From a virus (Duplodnaviria; Heunggongvirae; Uroviricota; Caudoviricetes), in IMG/VR virus record IMGVR_UViG_2778261640_000001, positions 1 to 12,548 of that record: 12,548 nt of DNA. One strand, 5' to 3'. Under the pieces are notes generated by a model, which did no database searches, was not told the DNA's origin, and worked only from the letters and a program-made list of their open reading frames with translations. How positions within the stretch are numbered: the first letter of the stretch is position 1; the number at the start of each line of letters is the position of its first letter. Positions 672-12,548 of this stretch are shown here, one piece after another. The position numbers were made by a program, and so were the translations under genes.

Positions 672-975
672 GAAAAAAATTTTTTTTCGAAAGAACTGTT
701 CACACTGTTCACCTTTCTTTTTTCTCCTTTTATTTCAGTATGATAGGTGGTGAATAATGGGTGAAGGGTGAACATTCGATTCTTCACCTCCGGCATTCTG
801 CCGGTGTGACTCATACCGGTGATTAATCCCCCGTACTAAAAATCGCACAGGGAGAAAAAAGTTTTTTTTGATTTGATTGTTCACACTGTTCACCTTTCGT
901 TTTTCTCTTTTAATTTCAGTGTGATAACGGGTGAATATACGGTGAAGGGTGAACAGTGGATTGTTCACCTTCGGG
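672..975. repeat. crr: crr-like cis replication region: two ~120-bp direct repeats (672-792 and 852-975) separated by ~60 bp, each carrying TGTTCACC / GGTGAACA octamers
   Basis: Hand alignment shows the two copies nearly identical (ctgttcacactgttcacctttc ... atttcagt.tgata ... ggtgaagggtgaaca ... ttcacct). This matches the recalled P4 crr layout and sits immediately downstream of the alpha gene. Confidence 0.75.
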
Positions 976-988
976 GGATTCAGGGATG

Positions 989-1012
989 AAAAAAGACCGG
1001 CAGATGCCGGTC
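989..1012 (-). terminator. Rho-independent terminator of the leftward (alpha) operon
   Basis: On the minus strand an 8-bp inverted repeat GACCGGCA/TGCCGGTC (995-1012) is followed by six T (989-994), 17 nt after the alpha stop codon. Confidence 0.65.
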
Positions 1013-1028
1013 AGATGAGTCATGAGGG

Positions 1029-3362
1029 TCAGGTTGTTGCAGGGTCGTCACATTTTGGCAGCCAGTCGCCGTAGCTTTCCTCTTTCAGCGTCAGGTTGGT
1101 CTGTATCCCCTGTTTGGTATGGCGCTTCTCGTAATTCAGCCCGTATTCCTTCAGCATCACCGGCAGCCCCAGCCCGAACATTTTCAGACTGAGTACATTC
1201 CGGTAGCCGTTTGCCTCCATGTAGGCCAGATAGGCGTGATAGAGGTATTTACGGTAGTTACGCGGGATGATACTGGCGTTCCCCATATACATGCCGCTGG
1301 TCTGCGGCAGGGTTTCCAGATAGCCGATAAAATCAAACGTCGGGTCGGCATCCCGTTTGATGTTCAGTGCCTCGTCTGAGTTCTGCTGGGACTGAAGCAG
1401 TGACCGGGCGAGCATCGGGTCGCTGAACTTCTGCATCAGGTGACGCACGATGACCGCCAGCTCGCGGGTGATTTTGTCCTTAAGCTGCGGGTCGCGCTCC
1501 TGCGGGGCTATCTGTTCCGGGAAGTGAATAATCACCCGCCGGCGTGACACGCCGCCGCTGCGGTCGGTGAAGCGCATCGGGTTATTGTTGACGGCCAGAA
1601 TCACCGCCGGGATATGCGTGGAGTACGCATCCCGGTATTTCGGGTCAACGGACACCGCATCGCCGCCGGTGATGGCCTTGAGTCCGGCTCCGTCGCCGCT
1701 CCATTTTTCCTGGTCCGGCAGGCGTATCAGTGAGAAGCCAGTTAACGCGGCACGTTCACGCGGGGATTCCAGCGTCTCGATGGTGGCCGACGTGGCGTTA
1801 TCCTCCCCGGCCAGCAGGGTGGCTATTTCGGCCATGATACTTTTGCCGCTGCCGCCGGGACCGGTCACCTCCAGAAAGAGCTGCCAGTCGTAGCGGTTTG
1901 CCAGCACCATAAACAGTGCGGCCAGAATCACGTCGCGTTTTTCCGCACGACCACCGGCGGCACGGTCAAGCCAGCGCCAGAACGCGGGAGCGTGGGTTTC
2001 CAGCGTTTCCCCTTCCACCGGCGGGGTGAAATCCACATCGCACAGGGTGCGCATCCAGTGTGACGGACTGTGCGGGTGGAACGAGCCGTTCTGCGTGTCG
2101 AGCACGCCGTTACGAAAGCCAATCAGGCGGCGGGAGGGGGCTTCCTGCTGCGGAATAATCAGCTTCAGGGTGTCCACCACGGAGGCCACCTTCCCGGAGG
2201 AGAACGGCGCGCGCAGCCGCTGAAACAGCCCGGCCACATCCCGGGCAAAGTCCTGTGGTGGCAGCACCTTCCAGACACCATTTTCATAGCGGGACAGAAG
2301 CTGGCCGTTGGCATCGACCGCGAGCGCCTCGCCGTAATGCTCATAGATACGCATGGCCTTTTCGCTGGTACTCATGGCGGAAAACTCCGCTTCGCTCATG
2401 GTGTCGAACGGGCTTTCAGCCGGTGGCCGGATGGCATCATAAATGGCCTTACGGGTGGCTTCCCCGCCGTACTGCGTGAAGGCATCATTCCAGTCACCGA
2501 AGACCGGCGGCAGGGCAACAACACCTTCACACGCATCTGCGGCTGCGGCGGCTTTTGTCTGGCCGTCACCGCTGAGGTCACGGTCAGCAGCAAGGACAAT
2601 CTGACAGGCCGGATGCTTCTGCCGGGCAAGGCTGGCCAGAGAAAGGAGGTTCACGGAAGAAAGCGCCACCATCACCGTTTCACCGGTCAGGTGATGTACG
2701 GTAAGTGCGGTCGCGTATCCCTCCGCTATCCACAGACGTTTTCCGGCCTGATTCTGTCCTTCAAGGGTGTGACAGGTGCCCCTGACCTGTCCGCCTTTCA
2801 GGGTGCGCTTACGGCCGTCAGCACTGATTAACTGAAGGTTAACCAGTTCGCCGCTGTCGTCATACAGTGGCACCACAAGGTCACCGGCGCGCCAGCTCAC
2901 GCCACCGGCTCTGTGTGTGCCGGTCAGCATCCGGCATTCCCGGCCGGGAAAGCCCTTGCGGGTCAGGTAGGCGTTACCGGTTCCGGGACGGGTTTTCGCC
3001 ATCAGGGTTTGTGCCAGTGCGGCGGCGTTCTTCCGGGCGGCTTCTGTTTCAGCACCGGCGGCAGCCGTCACTGCCGGGTCAGCCGGGGGCAGACTGCCGG
3101 TCACGGCAGCCACCTTTGTGGCCGCGTCGGACGGGGAAACACCAAACACCTTTTCAACCAGTTTCAGGCCGTCACCGGCACCACACTGATTGCAGTACCA
3201 GGTGCCGCGCCCCTCCCTGTCATCAAAACGGAAGCGGTCACTCCCGCCACAGACCGGACAGGGCTGATGACGGTTTTTCAGCACCTGAATCCCCAGCGCC
3301 GGGAGAATACGCGGCCAGTGACCGAGCGCATGGCTGACGGTGGCGGTTACGTTCATTTTCAT
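1029..3362 (-). CDS. alpha: P4 alpha-type primase-helicase / origin-binding replication protein
   Basis: 777-aa ORF. N-terminal zinc-ribbon primase signature (CPVCGGSDRFRFDD ... WYCNQCG), a Toprim-like acidic stretch (LAADRDLSGDGQ), Walker A GPGGSGKS and a long C-terminal domain. AGGAG sits 9 nt upstream of the ATG. Length equals recalled P4 alpha. Confidence 0.9.
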   Translation of the reverse strand: MKMNVTATVSHALGHWPRILPALGIQVLKNRHQPCPVCGGSDRFRFDDREGRGTWYCNQCGAGDGLKLVEKVFGVSPSDAATKVAAVTGSLPPADPAVTAAAGAETEAARKNAAALAQTLMAKTRPGTGNAYLTRKGFPGRECRMLTGTHRAGGVSWRAGDLVVPLYDDSGELVNLQLISADGRKRTLKGGQVRGTCHTLEGQNQAGKRLWIAEGYATALTVHHLTGETVMVALSSVNLLSLASLARQKHPACQIVLAADRDLSGDGQTKAAAAADACEGVVALPPVFGDWNDAFTQYGGEATRKAIYDAIRPPAESPFDTMSEAEFSAMSTSEKAMRIYEHYGEALAVDANGQLLSRYENGVWKVLPPQDFARDVAGLFQRLRAPFSSGKVASVVDTLKLIIPQQEAPSRRLIGFRNGVLDTQNGSFHPHSPSHWMRTLCDVDFTPPVEGETLETHAPAFWRWLDRAAGGRAEKRDVILAALFMVLANRYDWQLFLEVTGPGGSGKSIMAEIATLLAGEDNATSATIETLESPRERAALTGFSLIRLPDQEKWSGDGAGLKAITGGDAVSVDPKYRDAYSTHIPAVILAVNNNPMRFTDRSGGVSRRRVIIHFPEQIAPQERDPQLKDKITRELAVIVRHLMQKFSDPMLARSLLQSQQNSDEALNIKRDADPTFDFIGYLETLPQTSGMYMGNASIIPRNYRKYLYHAYLAYMEANGYRNVLSLKMFGLGLPVMLKEYGLNYEKRHTKQGIQTNLTLKEESYGDWLPKCDDPATT

Positions 3363-3376
3363 GGTGTTGTTCTCCT

Positions 3377-3697
3377 TCAGTGCAGTACCGGCGCTTTTAT
3401 GTGACGGGCACAGAGTTCATCCATCACAACCAGCCCGAGAAAGGACAGCGACGGCGCGGCCTTCAGGGGGCCGGATTCCATTAAATCTTCCAGCAGGGCA
3501 CAGGCTATCTGACGCCCTTTTTCCTCACCGTGCTGGCGCAGATAAAAGCCTTCCAGCTCAGCGGCGATGGCCGCCTCCAGTGATTCAAGGGTGAGATGCG
3601 GGTAGCGGTGCTGACGTTCGCACACGGTCAGCCAGGCACAGGCGACAGCACGACGGTAAAGGGCTGCGCGTAAGACGGGCGGTAAGGGTGTTTTCAT
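3377..3697 (-). CDS. cnr: Cnr-like copy-number regulator (P4 orf106 equivalent)
   Basis: 106-aa ORF immediately upstream of alpha in the same operon, with GGGAGG 7 nt before the ATG. Position and length match recalled P4 cnr. Confidence 0.7.
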
Positions 3698-3832
3698 TTG
3701 CTTTCCTCCCTGTGACAGATGACTGCATTCCGTGCCGGTTGCATTAACTGATAAGGCATATCTGCGTCTCCTGAAGACGTGCGTATCCCTGCGCGAATAC
3801 GCACATTTAATTTTTCGGGGGTCGTTTTTTAA

Positions 3833-4288
3833 TTACAGATAATTGCGGTAACTGTTATCCGGGGTGGTTTCCGGGTCAGGCTCCATGCGGGGAATTTCCC
3901 GCCATTCCCGCGCCACCGGTGCCGCCCGGCTGACCGGAACAGGGGCCTGCGGGTAAATATCCAGATATTTTTCCCGCCATTTCTGTAATTCCGGGTCTCC
4001 GGCCATTTCTTTCAGTACCGCATGCCGGTTTACGGGGCTGCGTTTAAACAGGTCAGGACGGTCACAGGTAAATTCCCGCAGAAAACGCCCCAGCGGGATG
4101 TCTGTGGTGCGCCCGTCAGCGAGGATACGCACAAGGATACTGAATTTACGGCGGTACGGGTTCCAGACAATGTCCGGGCAGCGGTACGGCATTTCCCACG
4201 GAATACCGTCTTCCAGAATGCCGACCACGGCCACATCGGGAAAACCGGCAGAACGGTAAATCTCACCGGGCTGGGGAAAATCAAACAT
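3833..4288 (-). CDS. P4 orf151-like protein, function unknown
   Basis: 151-aa ORF with GGGGAGA upstream of the ATG. Its ATG overlaps the last codons of the upstream epsilon-like ORF, suggesting translational coupling. Length and position match P4 orf151. Confidence 0.65.
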   Translation of the reverse strand: MFDFPQPGEIYRSAGFPDVAVVGILEDGIPWEMPYRCPDIVWNPYRRKFSILVRILADGRTTDIPLGRFLREFTCDRPDLFKRSPVNRHAVLKEMAGDPELQKWREKYLDIYPQAPVPVSRAAPVAREWREIPRMEPDPETTPDNSYRNYL

Positions 4289-4568
4289 GCGTCCTGTCTC
4301 CCCGGTCTTTCTGCTGGGCGAGAAAATCGCGGCACAGGCCTTTGGCTTTCAGCTCATTCAGCACAAAATCAATATCTTCATTCAGGTAGCTGAAAATATG
4401 CGGAATGTAGAGCTGATGCAGGCCGGAGAGTTCACGGTGAATCAAATCACCCCCAACAAACTGGGATACGGCGCTGGCGCGGTTGAGCTTATGGTAAGCC
4501 TCAATGCTGAGGTGTTCACGGGCGTCATGACGCGCTGAGACGGTCTGAGGGGCTTTTTTATTACGCAC
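4281..4568 (-). CDS. epsilon: epsilon-like protein (P4 antirepressor position), 95 aa from a GTG start
   Basis: GTG at 4568-4566 is preceded by GGTGGTGGAGGTG and overlaps the kil stop. The track's longer 147-aa version would overlap kil out of frame and lacks a ribosome-binding site. Confidence 0.55.
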
Positions 4569-4758
4569 GGGACACCTCCACCACCGGCAGACGGGCAGCA
4601 AGGGAGAGCACATAGTCACGGACAAGGGAACGGCGGGCGCTGCGTTCATCACCGGCGACGGTGCGAAGCATACAGATACGGGGATGACGGTCTGCGCGAC
4701 GGACAGCCGCAAACACAAAGACAAATTCAGGGTGTGAGGGGGTAAGGGTTGTAGCCAT
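4561..4758 (-). CDS. kil: Kil-like 65-aa peptide, first translated gene downstream of PLE
   Basis: ATG at 4758-4756 is preceded by GGAGG at an 8-nt spacing and gives exactly 65 aa ([12 protein letters not shown]...VVEVSRA) to the TAA at 4563-4561. This is the 3' part of the longer eta frame. Confidence 0.6.
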
Positions 4759-5160
4759 GATGGCAGCCTCCGTTAGATAGCAGGTTACGCTATCGCCGGA
4801 GTTCTCACGCTCAATGGCGATAGCCCAGACGGGGGTGAGAATACCGGCTCTAACGGATACCGGCCAGCCCGGAGGCTGCCCCGCCTGAGCTACCATTGAC
4901 TCTGCGGCATAATGAGCGGACGCGGGCAGGATGCACGGAATGCCATCTGCACGACTGACCACACACCACACCATAATCTGGCGCTCTGTGGCGTTGATTG
5001 CGACACAAAAAAAGACGCATGGCGCGTCATATGTCGCCGTTAGATTGCTCGGGTTCTCACGCCCGGCTGCCGATTTTGCGGCAGCGGAAAAACTATATCC
5101 GCAAATGCCGGAAAAAGGCAAGCCAGAAAAAGGGACTTTTTGCAGAGCGGGCATCATCAT
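4561..5160 (-). CDS. eta: eta-like ORF (about 199 aa), same frame as kil, starting upstream of PLE and spanning the cI/seq region
   Basis: The in-frame ATGATGATG at 5160-5152 overlaps the vis stop. Starting at 5160 gives 199 aa. The frame stays open across seqA, the seqB region and seqC. The track's upstream start at 5205 lies inside vis. Confidence 0.4.
4770..4810 (-). promoter_or_regulatory. seqC-like target, complementary to seqB; overlaps the kil ribosome-binding site
   Basis: Minus strand reads gcgtgagaactccggcgatagcgtaacctgctatctaacgg. Its ends (gtgagaa ... tctaacgg) are complementary to the seqB candidate. Confidence 0.55.
4812..4900 (-). ncRNA. cI: CI-RNA-like immunity RNA; boundaries approximate, seqB core at 4835-4856
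   Basis: Minus-strand ccgttagagccggtattctcac (4856-4835) is complementary to both flanking elements. Exact ends cannot be set from sequence alone. Confidence 0.35.
5037..5062 (-). promoter_or_regulatory. seqA-like target, complementary to seqB, in the PLE leader
   Basis: Minus strand reads gcgtgagaacccgagcaatctaacgg, sharing gtgagaa and tctaacgg with seqC, both complementary to seqB. Confidence 0.55.
5092..5121 (-). promoter_or_regulatory. PLE-like sigma70 promoter of the leftward operon
   Basis: Minus strand -35 TTGCCT (5121-5116), 18-nt spacer, -10 TATAGT (5097-5092). The start would lie about 25 nt upstream of seqA. Confidence 0.5.
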
Positions 5161-5423
5161 GCGTCGTACCCCCGTTTGCGTCCGGCAATGCGCCCGGCCA
5201 TCCATGCGGTGACTTCTGAGTGCAGCCAGGCCACATTTTTACCGCCAAGACTCACCTGCGGCGGAAATTCCCCCTTACGGATGAGTTCATAGATGGTCGA
5301 GCGTGACAGGCCGCACAGGTGCATCACTTCCGGCAGACGTAAAAAACGCTCCTGCGTGATGTCCGGCAGCGGCATCAGTGGCGTCACAGGGGCGGGAGAC
5401 GGGGAAGAAAAAACAGCTTGCAT
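5157..5423 (-). CDS. vis: Vis-like AlpA-family helix-turn-helix regulator / excision factor
   Basis: 88-aa ORF with an AlpA-type motif ([44 protein letters not shown]). GAGG sits 8 nt upstream of the ATG. Length and position match P4 vis. Confidence 0.8.
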
Positions 5424-5525
5424 CGGGCTACCTCGTTAATGTCCATACAGCACCGGATAAGTCCGTCCGGCTTCGGGTAGCGCTTTATTTTGTGAATATT
5501 TTCAGCAGACGCAACAGGGGGGATT

Positions 5526-5543
5526 TGTTCCGGCAGCCTTACA
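5526..5543. promoter_or_regulatory. TGT-N12-ACA dyad, an Ogr/Delta-type activator site, upstream of vis (PLL-like late promoter)
   Basis: TGT (5526-5528), 12 nt, ACA (5541-5543), centred about 110 bp upstream of the vis ATG. Confidence 0.45.
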
Positions 5544-5570
5544 ATGCTTGTGTGTTTTTTGTTCATCTCC

Positions 5571-5600
5571 ACTTAAAGTCATTTAAAGCCACTTAAAGCA
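5571..5600. repeat. Three tandem 10-bp repeats (acttaaagtc / atttaaagcc / acttaaagca)
   Basis: Read directly between the PLL-side dyad and the ori iterons. Function unknown. Confidence 0.5.
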
Positions 5601-5702
5601 ATTCGTAATTTTTATAGTGAAATACAAATCGTTTTTTCTTATTCATTCCCGGCGAATTAATAAAAACAAACAGTAATAAACAGCACAAAAAGCCCATCAA
5701 CG

Positions 5703-5807
5703 GGTGAACAGTGGTGAACAGACGGTGAACAGTCATTACTGCGATTGTTCACCATTTAACTTACTGTATTACTTATCTTTTTTCTTATGGTGAACAGAGG
5801 TGAACAG
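5703..5807. other. ori: ori-like replication origin: six TGTTCACC-type iterons in direct and inverted orientation
   Basis: GGTGAACAG at 5703, 5713, 5724, 5789 and 5799, plus inverted TGTTCACC at 5746, the same octamer as in crr. Flanked by AAACAAACAGTAA direct repeats (about 5665 and 5821). Lies about 4.9 kb from crr. Confidence 0.7.
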
Positions 5808-5885
5808 TAAAATATAAAAAAACAAACAGTAAGCCGGTTTTTCCTGCGACCTTTTCCTGGCTTGCCGGTGTGAGGATGAGTCTCC

Positions 5886-5903
5886 TGTGTCAGGGCTGGC
5901 ACA
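5886..5903. promoter_or_regulatory. TGT-N12-ACA dyad, an Ogr/Delta-type activator site, of a Psid-like late promoter
   Basis: TGT (5886-5888), gtcagggctggc, ACA (5901-5903), centred about 80 bp upstream of the sid ATG. Confidence 0.55.
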
Positions 5904-5974
5904 TCTGCAATGCGTCGTGTTGTTGTCCGGTGTACGTCACAATTTTCTCAACCTGAAGTGACGAGGAGCCGAAA

Positions 5975-6709
5975 ATGTCTGACAACACCATCCCTGAATA
6001 TCTGCAATCCGCGCTGGCACAACTGGAAAAGGCCAGAGCCGCCCATCTTGAGAACGCCCGTCTGATGGATGAGACCGTCACGGCCATTGAACGGGCAGAG
6101 CAGGAAAAAAATGCGCTGGCGCAGGCCGACGGAAACGACGCTGACGACTGGCGCACGGCCTTTCGTGCAGCCGGTGGTGTCCTGAGCGACGAGCTGAAAC
6201 AGCGCCACATTGAGCGCGTGGCACGCCGGGAGCTGGTACAGGAATATGACAATCTGGCCGTGGTGCTGAATTTTGAACGCGAACGCCTGAAAGGGGCGTG
6301 TGACAGCACGGCCACCGCCTACCGGAAGGCACATCATCACCTTCTGAGTCTGTATGCAGAGCATGAGCTGGAACACGCCCTGAATGAAACCTGTGAGGCG
6401 CTTGTCCGGGCAATGCATCTGAGCATTCTGGTACAGGAAAATCCGCTCGCCAACACCACCGGCCATCAGGGCTACGTCGCACCGGAAAAGGCTGTCATGC
6501 AGCAGGTGAAATCATCGCTGGAACAGAAAATTAAACAGATGCAAATCAGCCTCACCGGCGAGCCGGTTCTCCGGCTGACCGGACTGTCAGCGGCAACACT
6601 CCCGCACATGGATTATGAGGTGGCAGGCACACCGGCACAGCGCAAGGTGTGGCAGGACAAAATAGACCAGCAGGGTGCAGAGCTTAAGGCCAGAGGACTG
6701 CTGTCATGA
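5975..6709 (+). CDS. sid: Sid-like external capsid size-determination scaffold
   Basis: 244-aa ORF, coiled-coil-like and rich in A/E/L/Q. GAGGAG sits 7 nt before the ATG. Length and position match P4 sid. Confidence 0.8.
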   Translation: MSDNTIPEYLQSALAQLEKARAAHLENARLMDETVTAIERAEQEKNALAQADGNDADDWRTAFRAAGGVLSDELKQRHIERVARRELVQEYDNLAVVLNFERERLKGACDSTATAYRKAHHHLLSLYAEHELEHALNETCEALVRAMHLSILVQENPLANTTGHQGYVAPEKAVMQQVKSSLEQKIKQMQISLTGEPVLRLTGLSAATLPHMDYEVAGTPAQRKVWQDKIDQQGAELKARGLLS

Positions 6710-7206
6710 TTTACTGCCCGTCGTGTGGACATGTTGCTCACACTCGTCGCGCACATTTCATGGACGATGGCACCAAGATAATGATTGCACAGTGCCGGAA
6801 TATTTATTGCTCTGCGACATTTGAAGCGAGTGAAAGCTTTTTCTCTGACAGTAAAGATTCAGGAATGGAATACATTTCAGGCAAACAGAGATACCGCGAT
6901 TCACTGACTTCTGCCTCCGGCAGTATGAAACGCCCGAAAAGAATGCTTGTTACCGGATATTGTTGTCGGAGATGTAAAGGCCTTGCACTGTCAAGAACAT
7001 CGCGGCGTCTGTCTCAGGAAGTCACCGAGCGTTTTTATGTGTGCACGGATCCGGGCTGTGGTCTGGTGTTTAAAACGCTTCAGACCATCAACCGTTTCAT
7101 TGTCCGCCCGGTCACACCGGACGAACTGGCAGAAAGCCTGCATGAAAAACAGGAACTGCCGCCAGTACGGTTAAAAACACAATCATATTCGCTGCGTCTG
7201 GAATGA
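6706..7206 (+). CDS. delta: Delta-like late-gene transactivator with two Ogr-type zinc-finger modules
   Basis: 166-aa ORF whose ATG overlaps the sid stop (ATGA). Two cysteine modules: CPSCGHVAH...CRNIYCSATF and CRRCKGLAL...CTDPGCGLVF. Confidence 0.85.
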   Translation: MIYCPSCGHVAHTRRAHFMDDGTKIMIAQCRNIYCSATFEASESFFSDSKDSGMEYISGKQRYRDSLTSASGSMKRPKRMLVTGYCCRRCKGLALSRTSRRLSQEVTERFYVCTDPGCGLVFKTLQTINRFIVRPVTPDELAESLHEKQELPPVRLKTQSYSLRLE

Positions 7207-7279
7207 GGGCTGTCGGTTAACACCGGCCGTCGCCGCACACCGTATTTTTATTCTTCAGCATGATGAGAAAGAGATAACG

Positions 7280-7852
7280 ATGGAAAGCACAGCCTTACAG
7301 CAGGCCTTTGACACCTGTCAGAATAACAAAGCAGCATGGCTGCAACGCAAAAATGAGCTGGCAGCGGCCGAACAGGAATACCTGCGGCTTCTGTCAGGAG
7401 AAGGCAGAAACGTCAGTCGCCTGGACGAATTACGCAATATTATCGAAGTCAGAAAATGGCAGGTGAATCAGGCCGCCGGTCGTTATATTCGTTCGCATGA
7501 AGCCGTTCAGCACATCAGCATCCGCGACCGGCTGAATGATTTTATGCAGCAGCACGGCACAGCACTGGCGGCGGCACTGGCACCGGAGCTGATGGGCTAC
7601 AGTGAGCTGACGGTCATTGCCCGAAACTGTGCCATTCAGCGTGCCACAGATGCCCTGCGTGAAGCCCTTCTGTCCTGGCTTGCGAAGGGGGAAAAAATTA
7701 ATTATTCCGCACAGGATAGCGACATTTTAACGACCATCGGATTCAGGCCTGACGCGGCTTCGGTGGATGACAGCCGTGAAAAATTCACCCCTGCGCAGAA
7801 CATGATTTTTTCGCGTAAAAGTGCGCAACTGGCATCACGTCAGTCTGTGTAA
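7280..7852 (+). CDS. psu: Psu-like polarity suppression / capsid decoration protein
   Basis: 190-aa ORF, last gene of the sid-delta-psu operon. Length matches P4 psu. Confidence 0.8.
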   Translation: MESTALQQAFDTCQNNKAAWLQRKNELAAAEQEYLRLLSGEGRNVSRLDELRNIIEVRKWQVNQAAGRYIRSHEAVQHISIRDRLNDFMQQHGTALAAALAPELMGYSELTVIARNCAIQRATDALREALLSWLAKGEKINYSAQDSDILTTIGFRPDAASVDDSREKFTPAQNMIFSRKSAQLASRQSV

Positions 7853-7888
7853 AATTCCCCGAAAATCCGCCTGTTTTTACTGAAAAAA

Positions 7889-7916
7889 GCCATGCATCGA
7901 TAAGGTGCATGGCTTT
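7889..7916 (+). terminator. Hairpin terminator candidate downstream of psu
   Basis: GCCATGCA (7889-7896), 9-nt loop, TGCATGGC (7906-7913), then TTTG. The T tract is short, so possibly a weak terminator. Confidence 0.45.
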
Positions 7917-8016
7917 GCATGCGTTTCCCTGCCTCATTTTCTGCAGACCGCGCCATTCCCGGCGCAGCCTGAGCGTGTCAGTACAACTGCATTAAAACCG
8001 CCCCACAAAGCGGGCG

Positions 8017-8035
8017 GGCGTGGCGGGGAGAGCAT
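8017..8035. other. cos: cos-like site (putative P2/P4-type cohesive end)
   Basis: GGCGTGGCGGGGAGAGCAT matches 16 of 19 positions of the P2/P4 cohesive end as I recall it (GGCGAGGCGGGGAAAGCAC, from memory). It lies between psu and the cargo, where P4 cos is expected. Confidence 0.4.
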
Positions 8036-8052
8036 TGCGCGCCAAGTAATTT

Positions 8053-9675
8053 TTAATTTATTTTTTTATAAAGGCCATCTAACCCAGGTTTCAAAAGAAA
8101 TTGAGATGGAGCCCCGTTCTTAAGATCACCTGAACCATTATACCGTTTCGTAGAATGCATTAGCATAATGCCTTTTCTTGCTCGTGTAATTCCTACGTAA
8201 TGAAGATTTATGCATTGCTGTTCATTTTCGAATACAACATCATAGCTTCCTTCTATGAAAACTCTTTTAGGCAAAATCCAATCATACAGATCCAAATGAA
8301 AAACAAAGTCAAACTCAAGACCTTTAGACTTATGTAACGTCATTATTTGTACTTCATCACTTCTAACATCCAAATAATTATTTTGCATCCTCGGAGTAAC
8401 TAATATCTCTGAAAGAGCGGACTTATGATGCTGCTCGATTTCAGTCCCTAAAAGAGTTACTACAATTTTATTTATTACGTCAATAAGAAAGGCATCTGTA
8501 ACACTTCTAACCTGCTTAATAGCCTTACGGATACGAGTAGCCTCGCTCCTTTTGACACTGCTTCCCAAAACCCCCTCCAAAATAGACTGAGCAGTTTTAT
8601 TTAAGTTATACCTGTAACATAATAAATCATTAACAAGACCAGAAACCTTACCACCAGCCTTTGTTAAATCATTATCCAAATAAGCCCTATTAGAAACAAC
8701 TAAATTATCAGAAACTAGCTCCGCGCAAGCATTGCTTCTTACCAATATAGCAATCTCCTTATTATCAGATATTGAAAATTTATTTTTTACATTATCAAGA
8801 ATTTCACCAATCCATTTAGCTATATCAATTTGATTGCCATCAACACATTTTCTATAAACAAAAATCTCATCACACGGAGCTAGTTGACATTCAAAATCTT
8901 TAATTCTATTGGCGTAATTTACTATAGATGGGTGACATCTGTGATTTACTGTAATTTCCTTATGACAGAAACCACTATCATTCATGAAATCTTTTAGTGA
9001 ATCCGAACTGCGGTGAGAATACAAATAAATTGATTGATCCAAATCACCAACGATAATAAGAGGCATCCCTAGCGTTGGTATGAACTTGAAAACCTGATGA
9101 GTAAAATAACCGGTATCCTGATACTCATCGACAAAAAAACCAATATACTTTGCCATTAAATACCGCTGACAAGAATATGATGTTCTAACTATATAAAAAG
9201 CCAAGTGAGGAAGGAAGTCTAAAATCAACATCCCCTTTAAATAAATATCCCTCAGAGAACCCATGCCCTCAAATGAAGTATTAGAATAAAAATCCACTCG
9301 GTCAAAGTACTTATTTGTCTTATCTTTTAATTCTTGAGAAAGATCTATATACTTTACTACTTCGAGAGCGCTTTCGTTTCTGCCCCATACTTGCCTTACA
9401 AAAGGTAATATTATTTCGTTAATGAAAAACTTATCAATAGTACCAAAGAAGCTAGAATTTAACTCTGCTCCCAATTTTCTACATCTGGATTTTAGCTCCT
9501 CGCTGGATTTATTCGTATATGATAACGCAACAACTCCCTGATAATCCTTGGAATGGGATAAACAGGCAGCAATCTTATGGACGAGTATTGTTGTTTTACC
9601 ACTTCCTGGGCATGCAGTTATAACCAGATTACCTTCGTAATCAATTGCATCTAACTGTTCCTTAGTTAGCTTCAT
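8053..9675 (-). CDS. gajB: UvrD/PcrA/Rep-like SF1 helicase, GajB-like partner of a class 2 OLD nuclease
   Basis: 540-aa ORF with all SF1 helicase motifs read by eye: I ACPGSGKTT, Ia ALSYTNKSSEEL, II FVDEYQDT, III IIVGDLDQSIY, IV VNHRCHPSIVNYAN, V IMTLHKSKGLEFDFVF, VI YVGITRARKG. ATGA overlap with the upstream gene and GAGGTGA ribosome-binding site. AT-rich. Confidence 0.75.
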   Translation of the reverse strand: MKLTKEQLDAIDYEGNLVITACPGSGKTTILVHKIAACLSHSKDYQGVVALSYTNKSSEELKSRCRKLGAELNSSFFGTIDKFFINEIILPFVRQVWGRNESALEVVKYIDLSQELKDKTNKYFDRVDFYSNTSFEGMGSLRDIYLKGMLILDFLPHLAFYIVRTSYSCQRYLMAKYIGFFVDEYQDTGYFTHQVFKFIPTLGMPLIIVGDLDQSIYLYSHRSSDSLKDFMNDSGFCHKEITVNHRCHPSIVNYANRIKDFECQLAPCDEIFVYRKCVDGNQIDIAKWIGEILDNVKNKFSISDNKEIAILVRSNACAELVSDNLVVSNRAYLDNDLTKAGGKVSGLVNDLLCYRYNLNKTAQSILEGVLGSSVKRSEATRIRKAIKQVRSVTDAFLIDVINKIVVTLLGTEIEQHHKSALSEILVTPRMQNNYLDVRSDEVQIMTLHKSKGLEFDFVFHLDLYDWILPKRVFIEGSYDVVFENEQQCINLHYVGITRARKGIMLMHSTKRYNGSGDLKNGAPSQFLLKPGLDGLYKKIN

Positions 9676-11372
9676 AATTCACCTCTAGCAATTTTCAGTG
9701 CATGTATTAGAGGTCTGGCTATATCTTTGCTCTTCAGTTCAGTTAAAAAAGCTTTTTTCTCTTTAATTAACTCACGCATACGTATAGCTTTTTTTCCTCT
9801 CAAATAATCAGCGGCATCATCTAGATTATCCTTACTTGCATAATCAAGAACATGCTTCGAAAAGTCATTAGCAAGATCTCCTTCAAGATCAAAAAAAGAT
9901 ATATAAACGCCGTTAGGATTTATTATTGGTGAAATGGTTCCCCACTTAGTATGCAAAGCTTTACTATCTATAGGAATACTTGAGTTTGGTTCTTTATTCT
10001 CTCCACACAGTGCTAACGCCCTATTTACACCAGCATATTGCCATTCATTCTTATGAGGTACTTTTGAAGCATCATTGTCTGTTCTTACGATCCAATTAAT
10101 ATTTAGAGCTGTTAATATTTTTCTATAAACTTCAAATTGGATACCATCAACAGAAAGAATGCTGATGTTATAATAATCAAGATCAATACTTAATGCTTTT
10201 GCTAATTCAGTGTAAAAAATCACCTCAGATGGTCCCTCGACCAAAAAAACCACGTTAGCAAAAAATGCCTCAGCAGGAATAATACTCATCCGGTAGCCCA
10301 TTCCATCCCATGCAGAGCTAATACAATCAGAACATCCATTACTTGCGGCTAGAGTCTCTCCATCATCATAGTATAGTTTTATGATTGAATCAGGTTTAAA
10401 ATTCACTGCAATTTGGGGTGAGTGGCTTGTAACGATTGCTTGGCCTGGAAGTTTATCGATTAAATAGGCCGCCAATTTTCTTTGCTGGTGAGGAAATAGA
10501 TGTGCTTCCGGTTCCTCTATACAATAGATCACTACTTCACTTTCAACATCATGCTCGCGAACACTTTTTGCTTTCCATAACGCAAGAAGGATTTGGTTAT
10601 TAAACCCATCGCCACCAAGCATTAGTTTCTTCCCATTTGTATTCGCACTTAATTCTAATTTCTCTATAAACTGGTCAATCCCTATTGCACCAGTATCAAG
10701 TTGAACAGTTAATCTATCATGAGTATAGGATAACTTTCTAAGTTCCTCGTTAAGCTCTTCTGTTGCTGATGCAACATAACTTATTCCTTTAACTTTTTCA
10801 TTTACTTCAGTAAGTAGCTTATTTAATTCAGTAAAAACCGCCCCATCATTTTCAGTATCCTTTTCACTACGAACTTCTTGCGCCAATCTTAAAAGATGCT
10901 TCTTTTCAATTTTAATGTATTTTTCAAGATCTCTTTGCGAATTTATATACCTTAGACTTAAACACTTTAAGTAAAATCTATTAGGAACCTCATCAAAATT
11001 GTTATGTTCATGACTAAGTAATATCTTGTAATCCATAGTTAATGATGAAGCAAGATACTTAATGTATGTTTCCCCTTCATCGCTAACATACCCTCCTAAT
11101 TTAGATATTACAGCATCTTCACTAACATCTGTAAACTTGATAGTGATTTCTATATTTTCAACCTGTTCACCTGTCGAATTTACATGAAAGTCATTGCTTT
11201 TTGGTTCTAGATCTAATTCAGATAAACTTTTATCAAGTAATAATCGAATGGCATATAATAGGTTGGTCTTTCCAACATCATTTGCACCTATAATCAAATT
11301 AGTTTCATTAAAATTAATAACAGCATCACAGTAATTCCTGAATCCTTTAATATAAACAGTTTCAATTCTCAT
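9672..11372 (-). CDS. gajA: OLD-family ABC-ATPase plus Toprim nuclease, GajA-like
   Basis: 566-aa ORF. Walker A GANDVGKTN near the N-terminus, Walker B / H-loop (VVIYCIEEPEAHLFP ... IVTSHSPQ), C-terminal Toprim motifs (VVFLVEGPSEV, WIVRTDNDAS). The ATG directly follows the int stop (TAAATG). AT-rich. Confidence 0.75.
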   Translation of the reverse strand: MRIETVYIKGFRNYCDAVINFNETNLIIGANDVGKTNLLYAIRLLLDKSLSELDLEPKSNDFHVNSTGEQVENIEITIKFTDVSEDAVISKLGGYVSDEGETYIKYLASSLTMDYKILLSHEHNNFDEVPNRFYLKCLSLRYINSQRDLEKYIKIEKKHLLRLAQEVRSEKDTENDGAVFTELNKLLTEVNEKVKGISYVASATEELNEELRKLSYTHDRLTVQLDTGAIGIDQFIEKLELSANTNGKKLMLGGDGFNNQILLALWKAKSVREHDVESEVVIYCIEEPEAHLFPHQQRKLAAYLIDKLPGQAIVTSHSPQIAVNFKPDSIIKLYYDDGETLAASNGCSDCISSAWDGMGYRMSIIPAEAFFANVVFLVEGPSEVIFYTELAKALSIDLDYYNISILSVDGIQFEVYRKILTALNINWIVRTDNDASKVPHKNEWQYAGVNRALALCGENKEPNSSIPIDSKALHTKWGTISPIINPNGVYISFFDLEGDLANDFSKHVLDYASKDNLDDAADYLRGKKAIRMRELIKEKKAFLTELKSKDIARPLIHALKIARGEL

Positions 11373-12548
11373 TTACATTTTCCTTAAAAATAACGTTGAA
11401 GAGAAAAAGTTCAACATTTTCCTTCTTTCTTCAATGAATGTTGCATGATTATATGTACCGCGAATTCTATTACTATCAACGTGAGCGAGCTGTAATTCAA
11501 TATATTGAGAATTAAAGCCAGCATCATGTAAAATAGTTGACATCATATGCCTAAATCCATGACCTGTAAGCCTGCCACCGTATCCAAGTCGCTTTATAAG
11601 CTGATTGATAGCGGCCTCACTCATTGGCTTACTCGGATCATTTCGCCCAGGAAAAACATAACGATAGTTGCCTGTCATTGTCTTGAGTTCATTGAGTAAA
11701 TCTAACGCCTGAGTAGACAATGGCACAAGATGCGGCCTGCGCATTTTCATCCTTTCAGCAGGAATTTCCCAAATAGCGTTATCCAGATCAAATTCTTGCC
11801 ATAATGCCGCGCGTAATTCGATGGTTCTCACGCCCGTAATCATCAGTAATTTCGTTGCTATCTGGACAATTTTACTCCCGGTGTAACTCTCTAAGGCACG
11901 CAGAAATTCGGGTATCTCATCAGCTTTTAAGAACGGGAAATGATTGGATTGATGCACTTCGAGAGCGCTGGAGAGATCCGCAGCAGGATTGTACTCCGCC
12001 CTACCTGTTGCAATTGCGTAGCGAAACACCTCGGAGCAACGCTGCCGCACTTTACGCATTTTCTCCAACGCACCACGTTTCTCAATTTTACGCAGTACGT
12101 TCAGCAGCTCTAGCGGTTTAATCTCTCCCACAGGCCTTGTTCCAACATAAGGAAAAATGTCGTTCTTAAACGCTTCCATGATGTCTGATGCGTATCCAGC
12201 TGACCATTTAGCAGATTTAAGTTGATGCCACTCTCTGGCGATCTTTTCGAAGGCGTTCTCTGACTCTGTTTGCAGAGCCAGCTTTTGCTCTTTTCGAACC
12301 TCACTAGGGTTCTTTCCTTCTGCCACAAGTTTTCGAGCTTCATCACGACGGGAACGAGCATCGGCAAGGGTGATCGTTGGGTAAACGCCAAGCGAGATCA
12401 TCTTGGGTTTACCGGCGTAGCGATAGCGGAACCGCCAGCTCTTGCTTCCATTAGGTTCTATAAGCAATGACAAGCCTTGCCCATCCCCAAGCGTATAGGG
12501 TTTATCTTCAGGCTTAGCGCGGCGAATCTGCATATCGTTTAAAGGCAT
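11373..12548 (-). CDS. int: P4-type tyrosine integrase; ATG at the window edge
   Basis: 391-aa ORF. N-terminus MPLNDMQIRRAKPEDKPY is typical of P4-family integrases. The C-terminal catalytic region carries HGFRHMMST and LAHVDSNRIRGTYNHA with the likely catalytic tyrosine. Confidence 0.85.
   Translation of the reverse strand: MPLNDMQIRRAKPEDKPYTLGDGQGLSLLIEPNGSKSWRFRYRYAGKPKMISLGVYPTITLADARSRRDEARKLVAEGKNPSEVRKEQKLALQTESENAFEKIAREWHQLKSAKWSAGYASDIMEAFKNDIFPYVGTRPVGEIKPLELLNVLRKIEKRGALEKMRKVRQRCSEVFRYAIATGRAEYNPAADLSSALEVHQSNHFPFLKADEIPEFLRALESYTGSKIVQIATKLLMITGVRTIELRAALWQEFDLDNAIWEIPAERMKMRRPHLVPLSTQALDLLNELKTMTGNYRYVFPGRNDPSKPMSEAAINQLIKRLGYGGRLTGHGFRHMMSTILHDAGFNSQYIELQLAHVDSNRIRGTYNHATFIEERRKMLNFFSSTLFLRKM

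Follow-up and report, generated by a model that had tools for sequence, protein, structure and literature searches.

A TGT-N12-ACA dyad upstream of vis as the probable activator site of the late leftward promoter PLL in a P4-type satellite prophage

We analysed a stretch of viral DNA of 12,548 nt (the window). Positions 674-8016 of the window correspond to positions 4291-11624 of satellite phage P4 (X51522), with an identity of 98.0% over 7.3 kb, and the genes follow the P4 order: alpha, ORF106 and ORF151, the immunity region, vis, the origin repeats, sid, delta and psu. The genes and landmarks of this part of the window are:

1029-3362: alpha
4813-4900, minus strand: C4 antisense RNA (P4 immunity RNA family; Rfam, 75 bits)
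5008-5085, minus strand: isrK (Rfam, 72 bits)
5046-5098, minus strand: c4-a1b1 (Rfam, 49.5 bits)
5092-5121, minus strand: early leftward promoter PLE, TTGCCT-18-TATAGT, found by a promoter scan, with a start near 5085
5157-5423, minus strand: vis (ORF88), AlpA-family helix-turn-helix protein (PF05930, E = 7e-21)
5570-5808, no strand assigned: P4 origin repeats, from the X51522 annotation and the repeat families found here
5975-6709, plus strand (rightward): sid
6706-7206, plus strand: delta, encoding the activator of the satellite itself (166 aa; two stretches match PF04606, E = 7e-22)
7280-7852, plus strand (rightward): psu

The Rfam matches at 4813-5098 on the minus strand show where the P4 immunity region lies, immediately downstream of PLE, and the isrK match begins at 5085, in the region of the PLE start. 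The vis gene is listed as ORF88 in X51522, and as an excisionase and transcriptional regulator in NC_001609.

The start codons of vis and sid are separated by a gap of 551 nt. At 5526-5543 this intergenic region contains the 18-base dyad TGTTCCGGCAGCCTTACA, which reads TGTAAGGCTGCCGGAACA in the direction of transcription (minus strand). It is an exact match to TGT-N12-ACA, the late-promoter consensus of the Ogr-dependent P2 operons (PMC3931495). The dyad had been pointed out in an earlier note, and it is indeed present and exact. The same note described it as facing the other way. It does lie upstream of a leftward core promoter and of vis (111.5 nt from the vis ATG), but the dyad itself has no direction. 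A coding reading was set aside: two open reading frames run over the dyad (5384-5572 on the minus strand and 5378-5596 on the plus strand), and neither is annotated in P4.

In the whole window, TGT-N12-ACA occurs six times against 2.4 expected, and at least six matches were reached in 9 of 200 shuffles. Hence, the bare motif is weak evidence. Three of the six matches (at 5526, 5886 and 5924) fall in the 551-nt region between vis and sid, where about 0.105 matches are expected (Poisson probability of at least three, 1.8e-4).

The segment around the dyad can be aligned directly with P4. Window positions 5481-5572 correspond to P4 9088-9179, the 92-bp fragment registered as BBa_I746365, and are identical to it at 87 of 92 positions, with the dyad inside the fragment. 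The P4 counterpart of the dyad is TGTTCAGGCTGTCTTACA (P4 9133-9150), in which the TGT and the ACA are intact. Going from P4 to the window, the spacer of the dyad carries three substitutions (5531 A>C, 5535 T>A and 5537 T>C), and the two further differences from BBa_I746365 lie beside the dyad, at 5547 and 5548. Across 5400-5980 there are about 14 differences between the window and P4, five of which are concentrated within 18 nt (5531-5548), in the spacer of the dyad or directly next to it. The registered part is named 'PLL promoter from P4 phage', and P2 Ogr, PSP3 Pag and phiR73 Delta are described as its activators (PMC3044748). The earlier proposal of a PLL-like leftward promoter upstream of vis thus gains support from the match to a registered, activator-responsive P4 part. 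The P4 GenBank records carry no annotation of PLL or the late promoters, and the '-10 consensus' features of X02534, which are guesses from 1984, match neither PLL nor Psid.

The elements that we assign to PLL are:

5526-5543, minus strand: putative activator dyad for the Ogr/Delta family (exact TGT-N12-ACA at the P4 position, inside the registered PLL part, conserved in the clade)
5509-5514, minus strand: putative -35-like hexamer TTGCGT, read from the sequence
5491-5508, minus strand: imperfect second site CTG-N12-ACA overlapping the -10, read from the sequence, centred at about -19.5
5487-5492, minus strand: -10-like hexamer CAAAAT, kept in 111 of 111 related loci
5478-5481, minus strand: predicted start of the PLL transcript, 6-9 nt past the -10
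5424-5477, minus strand: vis leader, very conserved in an 18-locus alignment and in the 111-locus comparison

The core promoter is weak. TTGCGT has three of six matches to TTGACA and is separated from CAAAAT by a 16-nt spacer, while CAAAAT itself has four of six matches to the -10 consensus. A consensus promoter scan found PLE and missed PLL. With such a poor -35 and weak core, an activator would be needed. The -10 had been called not obvious by eye; it can, however, be identified as CAAAAT (5492 to 5487 on the minus strand). Across the 111 related loci the hexamer takes the forms CAAAAT, GAAAAT, CACAAT and CATAAT (NA[ACT]AAT), with A2, A5 and T6 always kept, and the TTGC core at -35 is kept in nearly all of them. 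Hexamers of this type also precede the annotated start of P2 PF (GAAAAT) and form the -10 of Psid (CACAAT).

The predicted start at about 5478-5481 falls within the range of 5470-5490 that had been suggested for a leftward transcript, and is supported by the registered PLL part, whose promoter-proximal end corresponds to window position 5481. Counted from a predicted start at 5480, 7 nt after CAAAAT, the centre of the dyad (5534.5) lies at -54.5, close to the roughly 55 nt of Ogr/Delta late promoters and compared with -55.5 to -57.5 in P2. For P4, a footprint of Delta at PLL and a mapped start have reportedly been obtained, in addition to the description in the parts registry. Deho and colleagues are said to have placed PLL, in 1988, roughly 400 nt upstream of PLE. 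Between the predicted start and the PLE start downstream of it there are about 395 nt, in agreement with that distance.

Downstream of the start, vis is the first gene. Among 18 loci, a near-invariant block runs from the -35 TTGC through AAAATATTCACAAAATA into the leader GCTACCCGAAGCCGGA...GAGGTAGCCCG-ATG, which was confirmed in the anchored comparison of 111 loci. Complementarity exists between GCUACC at the predicted 5' end of the PLL RNA (5481 to 5476) and GGUAGC at the ribosome-binding site of vis. Neither element varies in the 111 loci, and between them the leader contains a hairpin CCGGA/UCCGG. The fold energy of the leader was no better than that of shuffled sequences (z = -0.42), and the pairing showed no sequence variation or covariation among the 111 loci.

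On the other side of the origin, two dyads lie upstream of sid:

5886-5903, plus strand: putative Psid activator dyad TGTGTCAGGGCTGGCACA, exact TGT-N12-ACA, with its centre at -55.5 relative to a predicted start at 5950
5924-5941, plus strand: second Psid dyad TGTCCGGTGTACGTCACA, exact TGT-N12-ACA, overlapping the -10 CACAAT (5938-5943)

The exact Psid dyad at 5886-5903 has a counterpart 76-85 nt from the sid ATG in 18 of the 18 loci examined, diverged loci included. The second Psid dyad, centred at about -17.5, was found only in the P4 clade and was absent in 15 diverged loci. PLL and Psid are alike in having TGT-N12-ACA centred at about -55, an xAxAAT -10, and a second site whose ACA overlaps the -10. 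They differ in this second site, which is a perfect dyad at Psid and CTG-N12-ACA at PLL. In the P4 clade, the CAG and TGT of the second PLL site are invariant and its spacer positions 5503 and 5504 are variable. With an arrangement that mirrors the second Psid dyad, 5491-5508 is a candidate activator site.

The proposed pair of late promoters flanking the origin gains support, in that both families of origin repeats lie between the PLL and Psid dyads: the type 2 repeats at about 5570-5599 and the type 1 repeats GGTGAACAG at 5703-5808. The ori type 2 stretch (5561-5611) is hypervariable among P4-clade elements that are otherwise 97-100% similar. It has at least three allelic forms, carried by roughly 27, 26 and 15 of 69 haplotypes, while hardly any variation is seen in the type 1 iterons (5703-5808). 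This hypervariability may reflect replicon specificity or recombination.

The window also encodes a cognate activator. Delta (6706-7206) contains two Ogr/Delta zinc-finger domains, and the motif CX2CX22CX4C, which has been described in PMC3931495, occurs twice in the translation.

The features expected of an Ogr/Delta-dependent late promoter are thus found together at this locus: an exact dyad upstream of a weak core promoter with a poor -35, at the appropriate distance from the predicted start, with a zinc-finger activator encoded in the same element. Furthermore, the locus is orthologous to P4 PLL in its position upstream of vis, about 400 nt before PLE and across the origin from Psid, and in its near-identical sequence. 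In comparison with P4 PLL (X51522 about 9088-9179), the position of the dyad, the core promoter, the leader, vis and the placement relative to ori, Psid and PLE are the same. On these grounds, we consider it highly probable (about 0.92) that PLL, the leftward late promoter of this P4-type satellite prophage, has its upstream activator site in the dyad at 5526-5543.

To follow the dyad among relatives, related loci were gathered through Sid homologues and 111 were compared. They include 78 P4-clade loci, representing 69 distinct intergenic haplotypes, and 31 more distant loci. TGT-N12-ACA was present at the same spacing in 76 of the 78 P4-clade loci. In one IMG/VR P4-clade contig (L051), a 1-nt deletion in a C run shifts the dyad one base towards the -10; in another (L046), a natural variant, TAT replaces TGT. 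Within the dyad spacer, five central positions (5531 and 5534-5537) are polymorphic, which gives eight spacer variants among the clade loci. The form in the window is the commonest of the 78, whereas the form of P4 itself is a minority. With about 12 polymorphic positions in 58, the conservation of TGT and ACA while the spacer varies is not significant by itself (hand-estimated P of about 0.16-0.23), and it was not counted as independent proof. The clade pattern would fit contacts at both ends of the dyad, and is consistent with PLL. The spacer polymorphism in the P4 clade might tune the response to different helpers.

Other readings of the dyad have to be weighed against an activator site. 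It could be mainly an operator through which Vis autoregulates PLL. [quoted passage not shown] Both the motif and its position at -55, however, agree with the Ogr/Delta sites of Psid and of the late P2 promoters, and no observation assigns a Vis site to the dyad as opposed to the highly conserved core and leader (5424-5515). We therefore regard a dyad that serves mainly as Vis operator as very improbable. Regulation by Vis and binding of an activator are compatible, and the dyad could serve as a Vis operator in addition.

Even less probable, in our estimate, is a chance match without function, with leftward late transcription driven from elsewhere. The enrichment of the motif over the whole window is modest, as the shuffles show, the conservation within the clade is not significant alone, and the exact motif is absent in distant relatives. 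Yet three dyads in 551 nt are hard to attribute to chance, the dyad is correctly spaced from a conserved -10 and lies inside the registered activator-responsive PLL fragment, and it is retained in 77 of the 78 clade members despite the changes in its spacer. We give just as little credence to a reading of the dyad as a degenerate origin iteron to which the alpha primase-helicase would bind. The dyad adjoins the annotated origin, and in P4 the sequence TGTTCAGG shares six of eight bases with the type 1 repeat TGTTCACC. In the window and in most clade members, however, the sixth base is a C (TGTTCCGG), which leaves only five of eight. This sixth base is freely polymorphic (58 C and 11 A in the 69 haplotypes), whereas the true iterons are invariant in the clade. 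We rejected the iteron reading because the very base that creates the resemblance is polymorphic.

With the dyad read as the PLL activator site, the promoter could work as follows. A zinc-finger activator of the Ogr/Delta family, either the Ogr of the helper or the satellite's own Delta, would bind the TGT and ACA, which lie some 55 nt upstream of the start. The bound activator would recruit RNA polymerase to the weak sigma-70 core formed by TTGCGT, the 16-nt spacer and CAAAAT. The transcript would then start near 5480 and run leftward via vis to the left operon, so that PLE, which lies about 395 nt downstream, is bypassed. PLL and Psid, on either side of the origin, would jointly put both operons under helper-dependent late control. 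For the window itself, we infer that an activator binds and is needed, and where exactly transcription starts, or take this from outside sources. According to the registry description, activator-dependent activity has been reported for the orthologous P4 fragment (PMC3044748). Furthermore, Ogr, when it trans-activates P4, reportedly brings about excision and replication and switches on delta, psu and sid (PMC7552001). Excision and replication are functions of the left operon, and this report was counted in favour of PLL.

The late promoters of P2 show how far the exact consensus can be relied upon. Measured from the annotated starts of P2 (NC_001895), the activator sites are centred at -55.5 for PO and PP, at -57 for PV and at -57.5 for PF. 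PLL shares with PP, PO, PV and PF the poor -35, the dependence on Ogr/Delta and a TTGT distal half-site. PO and PP use one site for two divergent starts, whereas PLL and Psid have their own sites, 360 nt apart, with the origin between them. None of these P2 sites is an exact match: PO/PP and PF have TGT-N12-CCA, and PV has TGT-N11-ACA (L107/NC_001895 3057-3087, 10239-10266 and 17555-17583). The P2 genome does contain five exact TGT-N12-ACA matches, none of them at the annotated activator sites. Hence, a test for the exact pattern understates membership.

This bears on the more distant P4-like satellites of Klebsiella, Raoultella, Citrobacter, Enterobacter and others, whose Sid is 50-66% and whose Vis is about 70% identical. 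We compared their PLL-equivalent regions (L004-L026 and L101-L124), about 110 nt upstream of vis. An exact TGT-N12-ACA upstream of vis at the PLL position was found in 0 of the 31 loci, whereas the Psid dyad is conserved in its exact form in these satellites. About 24 of the 31 carry CTGTTGTGTGG...ACA, which amounts to TGT-N13-ACA, and in the rest the proximal ACA is missing. They have the same -10, the TTGC at -35, the leader and vis, and their TGT is equidistant from the -10. Their distal 9-mer, CTGTTGTGT, is the same as that of P2 PO. A test for the exact motif alone would wrongly score the distant satellites as being without PLL.

The activators differ as well. Delta of the distant satellites (L004-L023, L102, L110 and L117) has 81 aa and a single Ogr-like domain, with lengths of 67-87 aa in two loci. 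The P4 clade combines the two-domain Delta of 166 aa with second sites and an exact dyad at PLL. It is conceivable, though on present comparisons rather doubtful, that the exact N12 dyad of PLL and the second dyads overlapping the -10 are innovations of the P4 clade that arose with the fused, two-domain Delta. If so, the spacing and number of sites would have co-evolved with the architecture of the activator, and most P4-like satellites would differ from P4 in how helper activators affect their left operon. This comparison of N12 and N13 spacing with one- and two-domain Delta is the part possibly worth following.

PLL in the window is an already characterised P4 promoter that has been rediscovered, real but ordinary and not a new feature. 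It adds no new P4 biology, because the textbook layout of P4 already has divergent, helper-activated late promoters on either side of the origin. The PLL region of a P4-type prophage was found in 980 of 5426 complete E. coli genomes, without an annotated feature there. The value for annotation is that PLL is now placed in a common E. coli prophage region, with coordinates for the -10 and the predicted start.

Outside the P4-like core, the variable region between the P4 cos end (8016) and the integrase contains a Gabija defence system (8053-11372, minus strand), which here replaces gop, beta and cII of P4:

8053-9675, minus strand: GajB (PDLC00123, E = 3e-224)
9672-11372, minus strand: GajA (PDLC00066, E = 4e-261)
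11373-12548: integrase, running off the window

At the other end, positions 1-559 of the window are 99.3% identical to a tail assembly gene of Escherichia phage phi458. As the homology to P4 begins at 674, attR, the right end of the prophage, should lie at about 560-673, and the satellite would thus abut another prophage or a prophage remnant.
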